Sequence record: PZ445437.1
Strand: one strand, 5' to 3'
DNA length: 64,000 bases
Source of the DNA: a phage
Shown here: positions 10,696 to 52,684 of the stretch, in pieces
Layout of the letters: each line of letters opens with the position of its first letter
How positions within the stretch are numbered: the stretch's first letter is position 1
Notes under the pieces: model-generated
The model's input: only the letters and a program-made list of their open reading frames with translations
Databases searched by the model: none
Told to the model about the DNA's origin: nothing
Position numbers and translations under genes: made by a program

Positions 10696-11711
10696 TGTGT
10701 TGCCTCTACATATAGCTGGTTTGCATATTGAATAAGTGCTTCACGGTCAGAATCAGTGATGTCTGGAATTGCATTAATGTATTCTTCCATCAACGTCTGA
10801 AGAGATTGAACTTCAACTTCTTCACTGTCATCTGACTCGACAGAGTTATCAATTTTTGACACAACTCGTAATGAATGCACAACTTTTTCTAGTTCAGATT
10901 CGAACTTCGTTAGATTTTTGTCTACTTCAGTTACTATAACACGTACTGATAGATTTGTAAAATCTTTATAGTCAATTTTTCCTTTAAATGGATAATGAAT
11001 TCTACGATGCCAGGTAGTGTTGTTTGGAATAAATTCCATTCGTTCTGTTTCTGTATCAAACATCCAGAACCCACGAGGGTCATTCTCGTCACCTGCAGTT
11101 AGTGTCCATGGTGTCCCAATATATCTGACGTTAGCAGCCTCAGAGATAGTATGGAAGTGACCAGACCACACTTCTTTATAAGTCTTAAGGAAATCAGGTT
11201 CAAGACCATGAGATTTCATTCCTTTATAAAAATAAAATCCGTTCAGTTCCCAGTGACCAACGCAAAAAGAAGCAGATGAAGTTTTGATGTGTTCAAGAAT
11301 TTCACCAGTATTTTCTTCACACATCCAAGGAATTAAATCAATTAAACATCCGTCAAAATCTACTGTAGTAGGCTTATCATATACTTTAACATTAGGATAT
11401 TTAGCCAAAAGCTCAGTAGAGGCATTTGGATGCATTACATTTTTATAGTGGAGATCGTGATTTCCTACAATAGTGTGTAATGTAATTCCAGCATCATCAA
11501 GCGTTTGAACTATTTCACGGGCAAACTCCATAGTTTTATGTGTGATCGCTTTTCTCACATCAAAAATATCACCATATTGAATCCAGGTAGTAATTCCATT
11601 TTTCTTAGAATATTCTATTGCTTGTTTAATTCCATCAATTTGAATACCGCGAATCCACTCATCATCAGCTTTAACGCCTAAATGCCAATCACCCAAGTTT
11701 AGTATTTTCAT
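10692..11711 (-). CDS. 47: Recombination endonuclease subunit, Mre11/SbcD-like phosphoesterase
   Basis: 339 aa (T4 gp47 length); calcineurin-like motifs GDWH, GNHD. Confidence 0.93.
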   Translation of the reverse strand: MKILNLGDWHLGVKADDEWIRGIQIDGIKQAIEYSKKNGITTWIQYGDIFDVRKAITHKTMEFAREIVQTLDDAGITLHTIVGNHDLHYKNVMHPNASTELLAKYPNVKVYDKPTTVDFDGCLIDLIPWMCEENTGEILEHIKTSSASFCVGHWELNGFYFYKGMKSHGLEPDFLKTYKEVWSGHFHTISEAANVRYIGTPWTLTAGDENDPRGFWMFDTETERMEFIPNNTTWHRRIHYPFKGKIDYKDFTNLSVRVIVTEVDKNLTKFESELEKVVHSLRVVSKIDNSVESDDSEEVEVQSLQTLMEEYINAIPDITDSDREALIQYANQLYVEATQ

Positions 11712-12312
11712 GGTGTCTTTTCCATCCTAATTTAGCTGCTTTTGAAACTAGTTCTTTAATTTTTCCTTTTGTCCATTCAGGACCAGGAGGTTCATGACAT
11801 AACATTTGCTTAACTCCGTTATTATACCATTTTTTACCTTTATTATGTGATGAAGCTTTAAATTTATTTGACCTTCCTTTTACATAACCTTCTGGAATAT
11901 AAGGCAAAAAGGCAGATTTTCCTGTTAATGGATCATGTGAATGTATATTTCCTTTACAATTATGAGAACCATATAATGGATGATTTTGTCCTTTATTATC
12001 TCTTCCAAATGAACCTTTTGGAGCAGCATATGACATATTAAAGAATAATGGATTTTTAACTGCATCATGCAATCGTTGATAATATAACTCGCATTTAATA
12101 GCTTCTTCACGCGTATCAAATTCAGCTAAAATGCATGAATCAAATAAGTGAGGATTATCTGAAAGCTCTTTATTATAAATTTTCTTATACTTTTTAGATA
12201 AAACTGAACCATGATATCCAGCTAAATGCCTATCTAAAGACGTAGATCCAATATAAAAAGGAGGAAGTTTATCTCCACTATATATTGTTAAATAAGTTAT
12301 ATATTTTTTCAT
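11689..12312 (-). mobile_element. Freestanding GIY-YIG (Seg-type) homing endonuclease gene, 207 aa
   Basis: N-terminal YITYL..(x10)..FYIGS GIY-YIG motif; NUMOD-like GxNHPLYG repeat; 3' end overlaps gene 47 start by 23 nt. Confidence 0.65.
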
Positions 12313-18033: not shown

Positions 18034-18504
18034 TTAATCATGTGTCCACACCCCATCGGTATTTGACCAAAGTCGCTGATTATCTGATCCTCGCCACAGC
18101 TTTTTAGTCGGAAGATTTTTCTCATACTTCCCATCAATAATAACATCAACATATTTAAGCATTTCTAGTTGTTTAATATCTTCAAACTTATATCCTGTCC
18201 ACAACCAAATGCTTTTATTGGGATAAAGATTTTTAATAGTTTGAACCACAGAGTGAATCACGTCTCTGTTATCAGGATAAAGAGGGTCACCTCCGGTTAT
18301 AGTCAATCCTTCTATATAATCATTATTCAAACATTCAATTAATTGTTCTAGTGTTTCACCAGTGAATGGAACACCATTTCTAGCATTCCATGTTGATTTA
18401 TTATAACACCCTTCGCATTTATGCAAACAACCTGTAACGAAAAGAACTGTCCTGCATCCAGGACCATTAACAAAGCAGCACGGGTATATTCTGTCATAAT
18501 TCAT
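18034..18504 (-). CDS. nrdG: Anaerobic ribonucleotide reductase activating protein (radical SAM)
   Basis: 156 aa (T4 NrdG length); CxxxCxxC cluster motif. Confidence 0.9.
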   Translation of the reverse strand: MNYDRIYPCCFVNGPGCRTVLFVTGCLHKCEGCYNKSTWNARNGVPFTGETLEQLIECLNNDYIEGLTITGGDPLYPDNRDVIHSVVQTIKNLYPNKSIWLWTGYKFEDIKQLEMLKYVDVIIDGKYEKNLPTKKLWRGSDNQRLWSNTDGVWTHD

Positions 18505-19333
18505 TTATATATTTCCAATTATAGCCTTCAACACTTTTACGTTCGCCATTTAAACATTTTAAAATATTTCCTTTGCTAGAAATATTAAAATATTTTGCTG
18601 CGTCTGGTATATAATTAAATGTTTTTAAAAGAACACCATCTTTATATGCGCCAAATAAATTAAGAGTATATTTTTCTCGAAGACGCTGATGTTTCCTTTT
18701 CATAACCTCAGGATTTGCATACGCCAACTTCAATGAATTTCTGTGTTTTTCTTTTACTTCAGGTTTTTGCATTGCTAACTTAGTTAGCCTGGAAATTTTA
18801 TTTCTAACTTCGTCAGTTTTCATTGCATTTGACAAATTTAATAAAGTTTTATTTCTAACTTCAGGTTTTTGCATTGCTAGCTTAGTTAGTTCTCTATGTC
18901 TTTTTCTAAAATCGTCATCCTTCCATATATTTTTCGATAATTTTGACATAGAGCGGTGAAATAATTCCTTTTCACTGGAATACAATTTAAAAATTTCATC
19001 CAATTCATCCGCATTAAATCTATCGGTATTCGAGTTTATCATTCTATGAAAGGCATAACACATTTTACTATTGCTTGTTTTAGCTAAATAGTAATGAGCT
19101 AACGCATGGTCATAATATGACAAATTAACAATATTCCATTTATCTGTTTTATATTCAGGAAATATAGATTTGGGAAGCACGTGATGTGCTTCCGTTTTTC
19201 CTTTTATTTTAGGATTATTATAATTTTTTGTTATCAAATCAACATATGACAATAGTAAATCATTATTTTCTTCAAATATTAAAGATAATTTATCATTCAC
19301 AAAATCGCAAGGATAAAATCTATCATAATTCAT
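18494..19333 (-). mobile_element. Freestanding HNH homing endonuclease gene (279 aa, Mob-like)
   Basis: HNH motif EAHHVLPKS..N..YDHALAHYY; tandem NUMOD-like repeats (TKLAMQKPEV x2); ATG overlaps nrdD stop; first 13 codons resemble nrdG. Confidence 0.8.
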
Positions 19334-21147
19334 TGGTGTTTAACCCTATGCATGATTTCTTTATTTTTACCGAGATTAAATCCGCGTTCGTTCGGATTTC
19401 CCAAATAACCACATGTTCTTCTTATTGTGTTCATCTTTTTAGGATCAGTTTCTCCACAAATAGAACAAACAAATCCGTTTTCAGTAGGAGTCATTTCATG
19501 GGTACTTCCACATGTAAAACATTTATCTACTGGCATATTAACACCAAAATAATCTAAATGTTGTGCAGCATAATCCCATACGGCCTCAAGACCCTTTAAG
19601 TTATTTTTCATATCAGGAAGTTCAACATAAGAAATGTGACCACCTGTCGCAATGAAATGATATGGCGCTTCACGAGAAATCTTTTCAAACGGAGTAATAT
19701 TTTCTTCTACTGAAACGTGGAAACTGTTAGTGTACCAGCCTTTATCGGTAACATCTTTTACACTTCCATATTTTTCTGTATCAAGTTTACAGAAGCGATA
19801 ACAAAGGTTTTCAGCAGGAGTAGAATACAAACTAAAAGCAAACCCAGTTCTTTCAGTCCACTGTTTAAGACGAGCATTCATTTTAGTTAAAATTTCTCGT
19901 CCAATATCACGACCTACAAGAATATTCAATTCGTGAATACCAATGTATCCTAGAGACACTGAACTTCTGCCATTTTTAAATAACTCAATTATATCGTCAT
20001 CAGGTTTAAGACGAACCCCGAATGCACCTTCTTGGTAAAGAATAGGAGCAACAGTTGCTTTAACTCCTTTTAAGGAACTAATTCTACACATCAAAGCTTC
20101 AAAACACAAATCCATTCGCTCATTGAACAATTCGATAAATTTCTGTTCATTGAACTGTGTTCCAATATAAGAATCTAATGCGATACGAGGAAGATTCAGT
20201 GTTACAACACCAAGATTATTACGTCCATCAAGAATTTCATTACCAGTCGAATCTTTCCATACGCTCAAGAAACTACGGCAACCCATCGGAGAAACAGGAA
20301 CAGATGAACCAGTGATAGCTTTATTGTTCTTAGCTGAAATAATATCAGGATACATCCTTTTGCTTGCGCACTCTAGAGCAAGCTGTTTAATATCATAGTT
20401 CGGATCGTCTTTATAAAGATTAACACCTTCTTCAACAAACATAACAAGCTTAGGGAAAATAGGAGTTATCCCATCACGACCAAGACCTTTAATACGATTT
20501 TTCAGAATTGCTTTCTGAATCATTCGTTCAGTCCAGTCAGTTCCCGTACCAAATGTAATTGTTACAAAAGGCGTTTGTCCGTTTGAACTAAAGAGAGTAT
20601 TTACTTCATATTCATAAGCTTGGAATGCATCGTATACATCTTTTTCTGTTTTAGATTGAGCATAATTCAGTGCATCGGCGATTTGCCATTTTTCTGCATC
20701 CTCAATATGTTTTGCATAGGTGCGTTTAACATAAGGAGAAAGTACTTTATCTACATTAGCAAAAGTCGTTCCGCCGTATTGATGGGAAGCAACCTGTGCA
20801 GTAATTTGTGCCATAATTGCAGTAGCAACTCCAATTGATTTAGGAGTTTCAATCTGCGCATTACCAAGCTTAAATCCGTTCTCAAGCATTCCTTTTAAAT
20901 CTACTAAACAGCAATTAGTAAAAGGCAATGATATACTGTAATCTAAATCATGAAAATGAATTAATCCAACATTATGGGCATTTACAATATGACTTGGAAG
21001 AATACGACAAGCGATATGTTTAGAAACAATACCGGCCATTAAATCTCTTTTTGTTGGAAAGACGCGAGAATCTTTGTTGGCGTTTTCTGTATTTAATTCT
21101 TTATCTTTATTTGAAATAAAATTTAAAACATCTTTTTCTAAAGACAT
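19330..21147 (-). CDS. nrdD: Anaerobic ribonucleoside-triphosphate reductase (glycyl radical enzyme), uninterrupted
   Basis: 605-aa continuous ORF (T4 NrdD spliced length); C-terminal glycyl radical region and Cys-rich zinc site. Confidence 0.95.
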   Translation of the reverse strand: MSLEKDVLNFISNKDKELNTENANKDSRVFPTKRDLMAGIVSKHIACRILPSHIVNAHNVGLIHFHDLDYSISLPFTNCCLVDLKGMLENGFKLGNAQIETPKSIGVATAIMAQITAQVASHQYGGTTFANVDKVLSPYVKRTYAKHIEDAEKWQIADALNYAQSKTEKDVYDAFQAYEYEVNTLFSSNGQTPFVTITFGTGTDWTERMIQKAILKNRIKGLGRDGITPIFPKLVMFVEEGVNLYKDDPNYDIKQLALECASKRMYPDIISAKNNKAITGSSVPVSPMGCRSFLSVWKDSTGNEILDGRNNLGVVTLNLPRIALDSYIGTQFNEQKFIELFNERMDLCFEALMCRISSLKGVKATVAPILYQEGAFGVRLKPDDDIIELFKNGRSSVSLGYIGIHELNILVGRDIGREILTKMNARLKQWTERTGFAFSLYSTPAENLCYRFCKLDTEKYGSVKDVTDKGWYTNSFHVSVEENITPFEKISREAPYHFIATGGHISYVELPDMKNNLKGLEAVWDYAAQHLDYFGVNMPVDKCFTCGSTHEMTPTENGFVCSICGETDPKKMNTIRRTCGYLGNPNERGFNLGKNKEIMHRVKHQ

Positions 21148-21959
21148 AATTCTAATTTATCCTTTTGAAATTCTTCGTCTAAATATGGGTTCCAACCCAT
21201 TTTAAACCTTTTGATGAAATTATCAATTCTAAATTTCGGTAAGTTTAAATCCGCAAAAATAGATGATTTACTTTTAAAATCTGGACTTAAATAATCATAT
21301 AAAATTTCTGCGTATTTTAACCATAATATACAAGTACCAGATTTAATTGCTCTCGGAGTTTTCCAAGGTTTTACACCATACATCGGATTTCCGCTTCCTT
21401 TATGCCTGATAGAAGATGAAATTCCAATTTTAATTTTAGCTTCCTTTGTATGCGAAAATCCACGATGTGGATTTTCTTTCCAGTATTTTTTAGAAGCTTC
21501 TGATATTTTCTTTCTGGCTAAATTAGTATGATGCTTTCCATAAAATCCATGATTTTTGCCTTTATTACGATTTCTTTTAATCATGGTTATTGATTGCTTT
21601 TCTCTAGTTTCTTTAGAAGGAGAAATACCATATGTCGTAAATTTGCCATCAGCATATGCTAAATTAAAATACTCTTTATTCCATACATCTTTTTCTATAT
21701 TCTTTTGAAATTCAGCTTCAATGCTAGTTATTTGTTCATCTCCGACTAATTGAAAATATAATATTTCAACTTTCGGCGTTTCTTTCAATAAGGCTTTTTG
21801 AAATTCGGAAGATGACGAAGACGAATAATAAAATTTACCATTTTTATCAATAATATTCGTTCCATCAAAAGTGCAATTGGTTTTACTTCCAATGTAATAA
21901 TATGGTGGGGTTTTAGCATTAATTCTATTAATAAATGATAGTTTATATACTACATTCAT
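21138..21959 (-). mobile_element. Freestanding GIY-YIG (Seg-type) homing endonuclease gene, 273 aa
   Basis: VYKLSF..(x9)..YYIGS GIY-YIG motif; GKNHGFYGKHH and GSGNPMYG NUMOD-like repeats; paralogous to 11689..12312; ATGA overlap with gene 49 stop. Confidence 0.6.
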
Positions 21960-42108: not shown

Positions 42109-42184
42109 TGGTCGAGGCAGTAGGGATCGAACCTACGACCTAGGACTTAGAAGGTCCTTGCTCTTCCTTCTGAGCTATGCCCCG
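42109..42184 (-). tRNA. tRNA-Arg (anticodon UCU)
   Basis: Hand-folded cloverleaf, 76 nt, CCA encoded, anticodon loop CUUCUAA. Confidence 0.85.
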
Positions 42185-42188
42185 TAAT

Positions 42189-42264
42189 TGGGGTGACCGA
42201 TGGGAGTCGAACCCATGACTACGAGAATCACAATCTCGAGTTCTACCAACTGAACTACGGCCAC
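42189..42264 (-). tRNA. tRNA-His (anticodon GUG)
   Basis: Hand-folded cloverleaf, 76 nt, CCA encoded, anticodon loop UUGUGAU. Confidence 0.8.
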
Positions 42265-42378
42265 ATTAATACCTACTCCAACAATCAAGATGTCTTCACA
42301 CGAAATTAAGAGAAGAGTGATCAGTTCAACCCCTATAATCGCGTCAAGTAGATATTAATGTGACAGTTGTCACAAATT

Positions 42379-42453
42379 TGGCGGACGTGATAGGATTCGA
42401 ACCTATAACCAATCGCTTAACAGGCGATCGCTCTGCCATTGAGCTACACATCC
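42379..42453 (-). tRNA. tRNA-Asn (anticodon GUU)
   Basis: Hand-folded cloverleaf, 75 nt, CCA encoded, anticodon loop CUGUUAA. Confidence 0.8.
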
Positions 42454-42457
42454 AAAT

Positions 42458-42544
42458 TGGTGGGGAGTGATGGAGTCGAACCACCCGAGTCGCAATGACA
42501 ATGGATTTACAGTCCACACCGCTACCTCTACGGGATAACTCCCC
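42458..42544 (-). tRNA. tRNA-Tyr (anticodon GUA), class II
   Basis: 87 nt with long variable arm, anticodon loop CUGUAAA, CCA encoded. Confidence 0.8.
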
Positions 42545-42553
42545 AAATTAATT

Positions 42554-42628
42554 TGGTGGCCCTGGGTGGAATTGAACCACCATCTGGCGATTATGAGTCG
42601 CTTGCTTGAACCTTCCAGCTACAGGGCC
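42554..42628 (-). tRNA. tRNA with CAU anticodon (Ile2/lysidine type or Met)
   Basis: 75 nt cloverleaf, anticodon loop CUCAUAA; T4 tRNA-Ile occupies this position after Thr. Confidence 0.8.
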
Positions 42629-42629
42629 T

Positions 42630-42705
42630 TGGTGCTGATTGACGGAATCGAACCGCCGACCTTCTCATTACAAGTGAGTTGCTCTACCTACTGAGCTAAA
42701 TCAGC
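42630..42705 (-). tRNA. tRNA-Thr (anticodon UGU)
   Basis: 76 nt cloverleaf, anticodon loop CUUGUAA. Confidence 0.85.
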
Positions 42706-42710
42706 AAAAC

Positions 42711-42800
42711 TGGCGGAGGCGATAGGATTTGAACCTATGAGTCGCCGGAGCGACTGCCGGTTTTCAAGACCGGTGCATTAAACCACTCTGCCACGCCTCC
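42711..42800 (-). tRNA. tRNA-Ser (anticodon UGA), class II
   Basis: 90 nt with long variable arm, anticodon loop CUUGAAA. Confidence 0.85.
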
Positions 42801-42806
42801 AAATAT

Positions 42807-43457
42807 TTATATATTGTTAATTTGATTTAGAATTCTTTTTGCTTGAGTATGACTTACGCCAATATGCTTAGCATATTTAGATAATTCACCACGCTTAGAA
42901 AAATCATATAATTTAGAAATTTCTATTCTTCTTTTTCTTTCATCCACAGAAACTTTTGCTTCGTTTGCTTTTGCTATTTTACGTTTAGCTTCTTGAGAAT
43001 GAGTTTTACCAGCAAAGCCATTCTTCATTAATCCATTTGAAGACCATCCTTTTAATTTTCCGTTAGAATGTGCCTTTTTAACACCCAATGAAATTAATTC
43101 GCGTTGCTGGTCTGTCATAGGATAATTATTTATATGATCCCATCCACCTTCACCGCCAAGTTTTAAATTATACACATCTGGTCTATTTAAAAACTCTTCT
43201 GTAACAATATTTTTCTCGGCTTCAAGCATAGATTCTTTATCATCAAAATACTCTAATATTTCTTTAGAAAAATTTTCTATACCATACTTATCTTGGGCTC
43301 TTTTTAATAATTTACCAGAACCCATATATCCATCATCTAAATTTTCGGTAGAATGCACACCAATATAAATTTTATTATTAATTTTATTTGTTATTTTATA
43401 AAGATAAAAATGCATATCAGTCCCTAATAAAGAACTGAGCGTCTCACGACGAGTCAT
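42807..43457 (-). mobile_element. segB: GIY-YIG homing endonuclease SegB-like, inside tRNA cluster
   Basis: FYLYKITNKINNKIYIGVH...DDGYMGSG GIY-YIG motif; located between tRNA-Gly and tRNA-Ser as segB is in T4; probable true start at internal Met (43415). Confidence 0.8.
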
Positions 43458-43461
43458 AAAT

Positions 43462-43535
<74 letters not shown>

Positions 43536-43540
43536 AAATT

Positions 43541-43627
43541 TGGTGCGAGAAGTGGGACTCGAACCCACAAGGAAATCATTCCGCAGCATTTTAAGTGCTG
43601 TGCCTTTACCAATTTGACCATTCTCGC
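43541..43627 (-). tRNA. tRNA-Leu (anticodon UAA), class II
   Basis: 87 nt, anticodon loop CUUAAAA, long variable arm. Confidence 0.85.
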
Positions 43628-43628
43628 G

Positions 43629-43701
43629 CTGGGAATAAAGGACTCGAACCTTTGCATCCTGGAATCAAAATCCAGTGCCTTACCAACTTGGCTAATTCCC
43701 A
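43629..43701 (-). tRNA. tRNA-Gln (anticodon UUG)
   Basis: 73 nt, U1-A72 pair, anticodon loop UUUUGAU, CCA not encoded; 1 nt from tRNA-Leu. Confidence 0.85.
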
Positions 43702-48959: not shown

Positions 48960-48967
48960 TATAAATA
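48960..48967 (+). promoter_or_regulatory. Late promoter (TATAAATA) for gene 53
   Basis: Exact TATAAATA about 28 nt upstream of gene 53 ATG with AGGAGG RBS. Confidence 0.6.
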
Positions 48968-49586: not shown

Positions 49587-51297
49587 TAACCTTAATTGGT
49601 TTGTTGGTGTTGTTGAAGATAGAATGGACCCATTAAAATTAGGTCGTGTTCGTGTTCGTGTGGTTGGTCTGCATCCACCACAAAGAGCACAAGGTGATGT
49701 AATGGGTATTCCAACTGAAAAATTACCATGGATGTCAGTTATTCAACCTATAACTTCTGCAGCAATGTCAGGAATTGGAGGTTCTGTTACAGGGCCAGTA
49801 GAAGGAACTAGAGTTTATGGTCATTTTTTAGACAAATGGAAAACTAACGGAATTGTCCTTGGCACGTATGGTGGAATAGTTCGCGAAAAACCGAATAGAC
49901 TTGAAGGATTTTCTGATCCAACTGGGCAATATCCTAGACGTTTAGGAAATGATACGAACGTATTAAACCAAGGCGGAGAAGTAGGATATGATTCGTCTTC
50001 TAACATTATCCAAGATAGTAACTTAGACACCGCAATAAATCCCGATGATAGACCACTATCAGAGATTCCAACCGATGATAATCCAAATATGTCAATGGCT
50101 GAAATGCTTCGCCGTGATGAAGGATTAAGATTAAAAGTTTATTGGGATACTGAAGGATATCCGACAATTGGTATTGGTCATCTTATCATGAAGCAGCCAG
50201 TTCGTGATATGGCTCAAATTAATAAAGTTTTATCAAAACAAGTTGGTCGTGAAATTACTGGAAACCCAGGTTCTATTACAATGGAAGAGGCGACAGCTTT
50301 ATTTGAGCGTGATTTGGCTGATATGCAACGGGACATTAAATCACATTCTAAAGTTGGCCCAGTTTGGCAGGCAGTTAATCGTTCTCGTCAAATGGCGTTA
50401 GAAAATATGGCATTTCAGATGGGTGTTGGCGGTGTAGCTAAATTTAACACAATGTTAACTGCTATGTTAGCCGGAGATTGGGAAAAAGCATATAAAGCTG
50501 GTCGTGATTCATTGTGGTATCAACAAACAAAAGGCCGTGCATCCCGTGTTACCATGATTATTCTTACAGGGAATTTGGAATCATACGGTATTGAAGTGAA
50601 AACACCGGCTAGGTCTTTGTCTGCAATGGCTGCTACTGTAGCTAAATCTTCTGACCCTGCTGATCCTCCTATTCCAAATGACTCGAGAATTTTATTCAAA
50701 GAACCAGTTTCTTCATATAAAGGTGAATATCCTTATGTGCATACAATGGAAACTGAAAGTGGACATATCCAAGAATTTGATGATACCCCTGGGCAAGAAC
50801 GATACAGATTAGTTCATCCAACTGGAACTTATGAAGAAGTATCACCGTCAGGAAGAAGAACAAGAAAAACTGTTGATAATTTGTATGATATAACCAACGC
50901 TGATGGTAATTTTTTGGTAGCCGGTGATAAAAAGACTAACGTCGGTGGTTCAGAAATTTATTATAACATGGATAATCGTCTTCACCAAATAGATGGAAGC
51001 AATACAATATTTGTACGTGGCGATGAAACTAAGACGGTTGAAGGTAATGGAACTATCCTAGTCAAAGGTAATGTTACTATTGTAGTTGAAGGCAATGCTG
51101 ACATTACAGTTAAAGGAGATGCTACCACTTTAGTTGAAGGTAATCAAACTAATACAGTAAATGGAAATCTTTCTTGGAAAGTTGCTGGGACAGTTGATTG
51201 GGACGTTGGCGGTGATTGGACAGAAAAAATGGCATCTATGAGTTCTATTTCATCTGGTCAATACACAATTGATGGATCGAGGATTGACATTGGCTAA
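49570..51297 (+). CDS. 5: Baseplate hub / cell-puncturing device with lysozyme domain
   Basis: 575 aa (T4 gp5); internal lysozyme domain EMLRRDEGLRLKVYWDTEGYPTIGIGHL paralogous to gene e; C-terminal VxGxxxxx beta-helix repeats. Confidence 0.95.
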   Translation: MEMISNNLNWFVGVVEDRMDPLKLGRVRVRVVGLHPPQRAQGDVMGIPTEKLPWMSVIQPITSAAMSGIGGSVTGPVEGTRVYGHFLDKWKTNGIVLGTYGGIVREKPNRLEGFSDPTGQYPRRLGNDTNVLNQGGEVGYDSSSNIIQDSNLDTAINPDDRPLSEIPTDDNPNMSMAEMLRRDEGLRLKVYWDTEGYPTIGIGHLIMKQPVRDMAQINKVLSKQVGREITGNPGSITMEEATALFERDLADMQRDIKSHSKVGPVWQAVNRSRQMALENMAFQMGVGGVAKFNTMLTAMLAGDWEKAYKAGRDSLWYQQTKGRASRVTMIILTGNLESYGIEVKTPARSLSAMAATVAKSSDPADPPIPNDSRILFKEPVSSYKGEYPYVHTMETESGHIQEFDDTPGQERYRLVHPTGTYEEVSPSGRRTRKTVDNLYDITNADGNFLVAGDKKTNVGGSEIYYNMDNRLHQIDGSNTIFVRGDETKTVEGNGTILVKGNVTIVVEGNADITVKGDATTLVEGNQTNTVNGNLSWKVAGTVDWDVGGDWTEKMASMSSISSGQYTIDGSRIDIG

Positions 51298-51331
51298 TAT
51301 ACTTCCAATGAGCGCTGATTTAGGAGAATCC

Positions 51332-51826
51332 ATGGAAGGTTCTTCTATCGACGTCACCTTTACCGCTCAATTAGAAACAGGTGAAACGTTAGTATCTATA
51401 AATATAACTAGTTACGAAGAAACTCCTGGGGTTTTAGTAGAAGAAAATCGCTTATATGGAACATATGAATCTGTGTTTGGATTTGGAAATGACGCGTTGA
51501 AATATCGTTTAGGCGATGAATTTAAAACTTCTGCTTCATGGGAAGAACTTCCTACTGATTCTGATACTCAGTTGTATTTGTGGAAAGCTCCTCAGAATCT
51601 CCAGAAGACATTCACTTACGAAGTAACATTAATATATGACTACCAAGAACAAAGTGAATCTGGAGGTTCTGGTAGTAATTCTAGGTCATCTTCTGATACT
51701 ACTGAACCAACAGATCCTCCTGCTCCAGTAAGAAAAACTCTCGTTAAAAATTATACTAAAACTATAGTTGGAAATTGGAGTCGTTGGGCTAATAAACTGA
51801 GAGAATATGTCTATGCAAGACCATAA
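51332..51826 (+). CDS. Hypothetical protein (5.1 position)
   Basis: ATG at 51332 with GGAG RBS (track ORF begins 51269 inside gene 5). Confidence 0.5.
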   Translation: MEGSSIDVTFTAQLETGETLVSINITSYEETPGVLVEENRLYGTYESVFGFGNDALKYRLGDEFKTSASWEELPTDSDTQLYLWKAPQNLQKTFTYEVTLIYDYQEQSESGGSGSNSRSSSDTTEPTDPPAPVRKTLVKNYTKTIVGNWSRWANKLREYVYARP

Positions 51827-52403
51827 ATATTTTTATTTGTATTCAATAACTAATAAAACAACAGGAAAAATTTATGTAGGCGTCCACAAAACTTCAAATT
51901 TGGATGATGGGTATATGGGTTCTGGCGTTGCCATTAAAAATGCCATTAAAAAATATGGCATAGATAATTTTTATAAGCATATTATAAAATTCTTTGAATC
52001 TGAAAAAGCTATGTATGACGCAGAGGCAGAAATAGTCACAGAGGAATTTGTTAAATCTAAGAAAACTTATAATATGAAACTAGGCGGTATCGGTGGCTTC
52101 CCAAAACATAACACAGCGGGTGCTAAAAATGGATTTTACGGTAAATCTCATTCGCGTGAAACTAGATTGAAAATTAGCATTAAATCGTCTAGAAAAAGAG
52201 GGCCTAGAGGGCCTAGAGGTAAAACTCTGAAGATGTGTGGCGCCAATAACCCAAGGTATGGCAAAATAGCCCCTAATGCTAAATCTGTTATTATCAACGG
52301 CGTTTTATATAAAAGTATTAAAATCGCAGCTAAAGCTCTTAATATAAATTATAGTACCTTAAAGGGGCGAGTTAAAGCGGGGTATTATAAATGTCAGGAT
52401 TAA
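51807..52403 (+). mobile_element. GIY-YIG homing endonuclease, SegC-like (198 aa)
   Basis: YFYLYSITNKTTGKIYVGVH...DDGYMGSG; clear paralogue of the segB-like gene; sits between 5.1 and 5.4. Confidence 0.75.
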
Positions 52404-52684
52404 GTTATGATAAGTGTGTTACTGCTGGCCATGAAGCGTGGCCTCCAACAGTTGTGAATGCTACACAAAGTAAAGTATTCACTGGAGGAATTGCTGTTCT
52501 CGTAGCAGGTGATCCAATTACAGAACATACAGAAATTAAAAAGCCATATGAAACACATGGCGGAGTGACACAACCTAGAACTTCTAAGGTATATGTCACT
52601 GGAAAGAAAGCTGTTCAAATGGCTGATCCAATATCATGCGGTGATACTGTGGCTCAGGCATCATCTAAAGTATTCATTAAATAG
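52391..52684 (+). CDS. 5.4: PAAR-repeat spike tip protein
   Basis: 97 aa (T4 gp5.4 length); PAAR-like fold protein following gene 5. Confidence 0.8.

Follow-up and report, generated by a model that had tools for sequence, protein, structure and literature searches.

The window (the whole 64-kb stretch of phage DNA that was analysed, record PZ445437.1) contains an intact ATG-initiated ORF on the plus strand at 51807-52403, which encodes 198 amino acids, the stop codon lying within these coordinates. Upstream of it is gene 5.1 (51332-51826, +; phrog_1168, E 4e-67), whose start at 51332 follows the T4 annotation and whose open frame reaches back to 51269. The downstream neighbour is gene 5.4 (52391-52684, +; 97 aa), whose product is a PAAR spike-tip protein (Pfam PF05488, 39 bits for a cut-off of 27). 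The ORF overlaps the end of 5.1, whose TAA stop is found at 51824-51826, by 20 nt, and the beginning of 5.4 by 13 nt. The original prediction had given the same ends and had placed the ORF in overlap with both neighbours, and both statements are exact; its naming of 5.4 as a PAAR gene agrees with the Pfam match, which is above the cut-off. The further flanking ORFs of 575, 660 and 1032 aa match T4 gp5, gp6 and gp7, and the location proposed for the gene, between 5.1 and 5.4 inside the gene 5 to gene 6 interval, is also the one that it has in T4 and T4T.

A second in-frame ATG, at 51813, is a start equally good or better than the one at 51807. The Shine-Dalgarno-like GAGAG located upstream of the start codons (51799-51803, +) has a spacing of 9 nt to the ATG at 51813, better than the 3 nt that separate it from the 51807 codon, and the orthologue of Citrobacter phage CF1 begins at a Met that aligns with M3, that is, with the ATG at 51813. 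Initiation at this codon would give an overlap of 14 nt with 5.1. The ribosome binding site of SegC has been described as recognisable yet badly spaced (PMC2988022).

To identify the gene, we compared the 2.2-kb stretch around the ORF with phage sequences, which resulted in 703 matching records, the best of them being Tequatrovirus genomes with 98-99% identical DNA. The ORF is annotated as 'segC: homing endonuclease' in T4, T4T, RB55 and RB59. The window protein is 100% identical to a database cluster of 42 members (P0001) and is identical to T4T SegC in 196 of the 198 amino acids, the differences being S2P and G20E (P2 and E20 in T4). Based on the identity at the DNA level and on the 196/198 match, the sequence comparison indicates that the gene is segC itself, the orthologue of T4 segC sitting at its usual locus, and more than a SegC-like gene. 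The prediction of a SegC-like GIY-YIG gene was thus borne out and could be sharpened. In T4T (HM137666), segC likewise lies between 5.1 and 5.4, has 198 aa (597 nt) and shows the same 20-nt and 13-nt overlaps, whereas the genome around it is not that of T4: there are 10 tRNAs, segB is another variant and nrdD has no intron. As segC is already known and has been experimentally studied in T4, the finding is correct but ordinary.

In the T4 reference sequence (NC_000866.4 / AF158101.6) the second GGGCCTAGA repeat has one C fewer, which breaks the frame, and the gene is thus annotated as segC (140 aa) and 5.3 (56 aa). Besides the missing C, the reference differs from the window by 5 substitutions over 51700-52500. 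The site of the 1-nt difference is a tandem of two copies of the 9-mer GGGCCTAGA (52200-52217, +), which codes for an RGPRGP linker. Nearly all other T4 records have 2201 bp across the region, like the window, and T4T has a single 198-aa gene. The intact frame in T4T and in the other resequenced T4 records indicates that '5.3' is the C-terminal part of SegC and, since the resequenced genomes do not share the frameshift, it is probably a sequencing error in the reference. The corrected, unsplit segC is already present in newer T4 records. Annotations should therefore name it segC (GIY-YIG homing endonuclease, 198 aa) and should not carry over a separate '5.3' from the T4 reference.

The doubled GGGCCTAGA stretch in the SegC linker, where the frameshift of the reference lies, is indel-prone. 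The T4 records OL964745 and MZ375356 are 9-11 bp shorter across the region. Additionally, a protein from Logan assemblies (P0003) is 74% identical to SegC and has T4's E20; its differences are almost all of the kind that a change of every C to T in the DNA would cause (S to F/L, A to V and P to F/L, and further H to Y, R to C and T to I). In all likelihood this protein was assembled from T4 control DNA after bisulfite conversion and is no natural variant.

The N-terminal GIY-YIG catalytic domain of SegC comprises about residues 8-99 (51828-52103, +). Residues 8-82 match Pfam PF19835 (SegE_GIY-YIG) with 27.4 bits for a gathering threshold of 25, and the generic GIY-YIG family PF01541 scores 19.1 bits, under its cut-off of 22.6. 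The linker carries a NUMOD3 motif at residues 105-124 (52119-52178, +; Pfam PF07460, 28.3 bits for a cut-off of 20.4), and residues 152-191 (52260-52379, +) probably form a C-terminal helix-turn-helix DNA-binding domain. The latter residues match the Pfam I-TevI_DNA-bd family with 23.8 bits and an E value of 4e-5, under the cut-off of 27, and the region is conserved in the orthologues found at the same locus in CF1 and COW86c; the match of the C-terminal fold to 1i3j in the fold search was without significance. In PHROGs, SegC belongs to phrog_314 'homing endonuclease' (E 2e-56).

When the PDB was searched with the SegC sequence, nothing matched, and we therefore used structure prediction and a fold search. 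Sixty homologues were aligned, and the structure was predicted with AlphaFold. The model has a mean pLDDT of 81.9, with values above 95 for residues 11-90; it matches the I-TevI catalytic domain best, followed by other GIY-YIG nucleases, namely PD-T4-3, the UvrC N-terminal domain, T4 EndoII, SLX1 and Eco29kI. In Foldseek, too, I-TevI occupies the top three places (probability 1.0, E 0.012-0.04), with the E values after these being about 100-fold worse. SegC thus displays the N-terminal alpha/beta fold of the GIY-YIG homing endonucleases, and the nuclease fold on which the prediction depended was found by Pfam and by the structure search.

Among the 60 homologues, Y12, Y23-V-G25, E73 and N89 are invariant, and all of them are present in the SegC of the window. 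We take Y12, Y23, E73 and N89 to be the equivalents of Y6, Y17, E75 and N90 of I-TevI, in which the canonical GIY-YIG arginine after the YIG motif is R27. The alignment of the 60 homologues displays no invariant Arg after the YIG motif; H27, K49 and K57 of SegC are invariant or nearly so, and the Seg family signature DDGYMGSG differs from the I-TevI motif around the canonical Arg. The two proteins also differ in other respects, with about 21% identity in the catalytic domain: I-TevI is intron-encoded (td) whereas SegC is free-standing, and no zinc finger was seen in SegC.

With the 551-bp segC body as query, we retrieved the full-length gene from 36 phage records, with a DNA identity of 98% or more throughout; many of the records are resequenced T4 lab strains, and about 16 come from independent isolates. 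The flanks of segC, on the other hand, were found in 490-703 records. A 240-bp probe across the empty PhiZZ23 junction matches 490 records, the great majority as one unbroken piece, and the 5.1/5.4 junction is uninterrupted in T2, RB14, RB6, KIT03 and PhiZZ23. segC is present in about 36 of about 490 related records (~7%) and missing at the junction from about 92%; universal conservation of the ORF at this position, the pattern that had been set against the prediction, is therefore not what its relatives display. Such a patchy presence at a conserved site, together with clean boundaries, is as expected for a GIY-YIG homing endonuclease.

Alignments with PhiZZ23, T2, RB14 and KIT03 delimit a 564-bp (188-codon) insertion at 51829-52392 (+) with respect to the segC-less phages. 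The hexanucleotide ATAAAT is found at both edges, just before the insertion (51823-51828) and as its final 6 nt (52387-52392). The empty sites read ...CCA TAA ATG TCA GG..., with the stop of 5.1 directly adjoining the start of 5.4. The insertion preserves the 5.1 TAA and recreates the 5.4 ATG, and the flanking host sequence supplies the first 7 and the last 4 codons of SegC. In the T2 record MH751506 (stretch 1-420), the annotated 5.1 stops about 200 nt short of 5.4, but the DNA nonetheless aligns fully with the other segC-less phages, and the short 5.1 is probably a frameshift or an annotation problem.

The sequence around the insertion also carries possible marks of exchange. A substitution cluster in the last codons of 5.1 (51803-51820, +) splits the segC-carrying from the segC-less phages: the window and the T4 reference, which are both of the segC-carrying sequences aligned, have ARAATATGYCTATGCAAGACC, and the segC-less phages aligned (4/4) have AAGCYATGTRTATGAGAGGYC. 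Judged from the alignment, these substitutions are a candidate for target-site immunity or for a co-conversion footprint. The segC body differs from that of T4 by 2 substitutions in 564 bp, as against 3-5% in gene 5, and is identical to that of Salmonella phage Manna. The upstream flank is mosaic, being identical to segC-less PhiZZ23 over 50700-51500 and diverging from about 51500 to the junction. The mosaic flank and the little-diverged segC body would be compatible with homing in which a short tract was co-converted.

The late-promoter motif TATAAATA is found just upstream of gene 53 (48960-48967, +), a second copy lies inside 5.1 (51397-51404, +), and none was found within 430 nt upstream of segC. 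With 13 copies for 11 expected, the motif is no commoner in the window than by chance, and the promoter assignment therefore rests on position and literature. The copy at 48960 is the probable source of a polycistronic late transcript that would include segC. A scan for sigma-70-type promoters gave 16 sites for 16.2 expected, a number at chance that lends no support to an early promoter of segC's own. The terminator scan revealed 5 sites for 2.0 expected (sd 1.4), with no convincing terminator between 5.1, segC and 5.4. RNA folding around the segC start showed nothing beyond the shuffled controls (z = 0.36), and thus no evidence for a hairpin that sequesters the ribosome binding site. Inside segC, an inverted repeat with a 7-bp stem (ATGCCAT...ATGGCAT) and a T-rich tail (51940-51961, +) is the only plus-strand terminator-like site near the gene; it is weak and without statistical support, and the hairpin might attenuate read-through.

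In agreement with the lack of a promoter of its own, a review counts segC among the cassettes that have no promoter and are transcribed from T4 promoters further upstream; it gives the overlap with the preceding ORF as 20 bp and suggests low-level translation via ribosome scanning (PMC2988022). Since segC shows no promoter of its own and is placed inside the late baseplate operon, its late co-transcription with this operon is plausible. The original prediction had concluded from the overlaps with both neighbours that the gene is expressed from late transcripts: the overlaps (20 and 13 nt) stand, and late expression is a reasonable expectation that agrees with the published description (PMC2988022). 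At the 3' end of segC, the sequence GCGGGG (52377-52382, +) lies 8 nt upstream of the 5.4 ATG and is likely the ribosome binding site of the PAAR gene, brought by the insertion; in the segC-less phages the corresponding signal is GAGAGG, at the end of 5.1.

Taken together, the data make us highly confident that segC belongs to the free-standing homing endonuclease genes of the GIY-YIG type, in a T4-type phage (Tequatrovirus), and we expect it to home into uninterrupted 5.1/5.4 junctions. T4 segC has previously been reported as free-standing, active, of the GIY-YIG type and inserted at 5.1/5.3 (PMC2988022), and efficient cleavage of an ectopically placed SegC site has been noted in T4 infections (PMC3016281). 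The protein would combine a GIY-YIG nuclease at the N-terminus with a helix-turn-helix DNA-binding module at the C-terminus, joined by a linker that contains NUMOD3. In a cell co-infected by a relative with an uninterrupted 5.1/5.4 junction, SegC would bind this junction and presumably cut nearby, and repair of the break from the segC-carrying genome would copy the 564-bp gene and some of its flank into the recipient, the outcome being homing with co-conversion, alias localized marker exclusion. The gene would be read within a late baseplate transcript with the order 53-5-5.1-segC-5.4-6..., the timing being deduced from its position. Translation of the protein is probably weak and would depend on ribosomes that re-initiate at, or scan back from, the stop of 5.1. 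The insertion retains the 5.1 stop, rebuilds the 5.4 ATG and appears to bring a ribosome binding site for 5.4.

The same features can be read in other ways. The position between baseplate genes, with overlaps on both sides and the co-transcription that would follow, could belong to a conserved structural or assembly protein or a regulator of the baseplate operon that is not mobile. This reading has practically no chance of being right: the ORF is missing from about 450 of about 490 close relatives, including T2 and RB14, in which 5.1 and 5.4 abut, and its product has a nuclease fold and belongs to a homing endonuclease family. The conserved baseplate component was rejected on the presence/absence pattern, that is, on the patchy distribution among relatives. 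A decaying, inactive relic that is kept only for the ribosome binding site and start context of PAAR gene 5.4 would explain why the likely 5.4 signal lies inside segC, embedded expression signals are known to favour the keeping of such genes (PMC2988022), and the T4 reference record is in fact a frameshifted version. We consider the relic very unlikely, however, because the ORF is intact in the window and, with few exceptions, in the 35 further records, all the family-invariant residues are retained, the resequenced T4 genomes are without the reference frameshift, and T4 SegC has been reported to be active in vivo (PMC2988022, PMC3016281).

SegC might also persist mainly as a weapon or benefit to the phage, through exclusion of competitor markers, stimulation of recombination-dependent replication near oriE or immune evasion of the kind lately described for SegB. 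Marker exclusion by T4 homing endonucleases is documented (PMC2988022), amplification of anti-defence loci promoted by SegB is reported in a 2026 paper (PMC13096335), and oriE is annotated inside gene 5 in T4 records, about 840 bp upstream of segC. Nothing in the sequence separates such a role from plain homing, however, and the low frequency among relatives (~7%) speaks against a strong general advantage, so that we give this possibility an even smaller chance than the relic, though a somewhat better one than the baseplate component. Read as a homing endonuclease gene, segC is a clean textbook case of a free-standing insertion, with the upstream stop preserved and the downstream start rebuilt, and beyond correct annotation it has little significance.

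SegC also has orthologues outside Tequatrovirus. Citrobacter phage CF1 (Moonvirus) and Erwinia phage COW86c have a SegC-like gene of 204-205 aa at the 5.1/5.4 junction which, like segC, overlaps the end of 5.1. Along their whole length, the C-terminal domain included, these proteins share 51-53% identity with SegC, but the genes are more diverged, have a longer linker, abut 5.4 differently and belong to other genera. A tentative hypothesis, which we regard as possible and on balance doubtful, is that the 5.1/5.4 junction is an old homing site tracked by the SegC lineage across Tequatrovirus, Moonvirus and the Erwinia phage, with the DNA-binding domain conserved alongside, and that the gene has entrenched itself by supplying the ribosome binding site and start context of the PAAR gene. 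If true, the locus would be a natural system, amenable to study, in which a homing endonuclease has coevolved with its target over a long time and the host operon has become partly 'addicted'. The persistence of SegC at one junction across genera and an insertion that carries the PAAR translation signals provide only a mildly new angle.

Within the window, SegC is related to the product of the segB-like gene of the tRNA cluster (42807-43457, -; PHROG 314), which lies between tRNA-Ser and tRNA-Gly. The two proteins share 44% identity over 147 columns (BLASTP E 3e-39, phmmer E 2e-36), confirming the parallel in their N-termini and the paralogy that had been claimed, and SegC is 53% identical to T4 SegB over 101 aa. 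No further paralogues were detected among the ORFs of the window. T4 SegB and the segB-like protein have the same Seg-type GIY-YIG catalytic domain, NUMOD3 motif and PHROG 314 assignment as SegC, whereas the C-terminal DNA-binding regions of SegB and SegC are unrelated and their insertion sites and targets differ, those of SegB being tRNA genes (PMC2330249).

The segB-like protein and T4 SegB have a near-identical catalytic domain (97 of 117 aligned residues), and their C-terminal halves are without similarity. The gene occupies the place where T4 and AdolfPortmann (the latter being the closest relative) have tRNA-Pro, and the 10 tRNAs of the window (42109-43701) include no tRNA-Pro. The appearance is that of a SegB variant whose DNA-binding domain has been swapped and whose insertion site differs.

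AdolfPortmann has no homing endonuclease labels in the stretch compared, which stops before segC, and is without segB, so the homing endonuclease genes of the window were found via alignment gaps and then with Pfam and PHROGs. The PHROGs and Pfam analysis supports the count of five free-standing genes that had been proposed for the window. All five match PHROG 'homing endonuclease' or 'HNH endonuclease' families, with E values from 2e-34 to 1e-94, and the Pfam support for the candidates other than segC is weaker than that of PHROGs. Besides segC and the segB-like gene, they are located at 11689-12312 (-; 207 aa; phrog_10820, E 1e-94, and also phrog_314), at 18494-19333 (-; 279 aa; phrog_655, E 5e-37, and the HNH-type phrog_12434, E 7e-15) and at 21138-21959 (-; 273 aa; phrog_7504, E 2e-34, with NUMOD3 by Pfam). 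Together, segC and the other four genes help to explain the mosaicism of T-even phages.

Two of these genes flank nrdD on both sides, one of the HNH type (18494-19333) and one of the Seg/NUMOD3 type (21138-21959), both free-standing. nrdD itself is an uninterrupted ORF of 605 aa at 19330-21147, within the minus-strand region 18494-21959, and is without an intron. The segment 18506-25237 is not colinear with AdolfPortmann, which is otherwise the closest relative.

We also noted that gene 5 and 5.1 are separated by about 890 additional bp in five segC-carrying phages, namely Salmonella phage Manna, T4_ev151, LH2, CJY920 and SP21535, the layout of Manna being implied for the other four. The Manna insert (1821-2687 of the stretch compared) codes for a Seg-family protein of 288 aa (phrog_314, E 1e-25) that is 30% identical to SegC in the N-terminal domain. 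This second Seg gene indicates that the gene 5 to gene 6 interval can hold two homing endonuclease genes.
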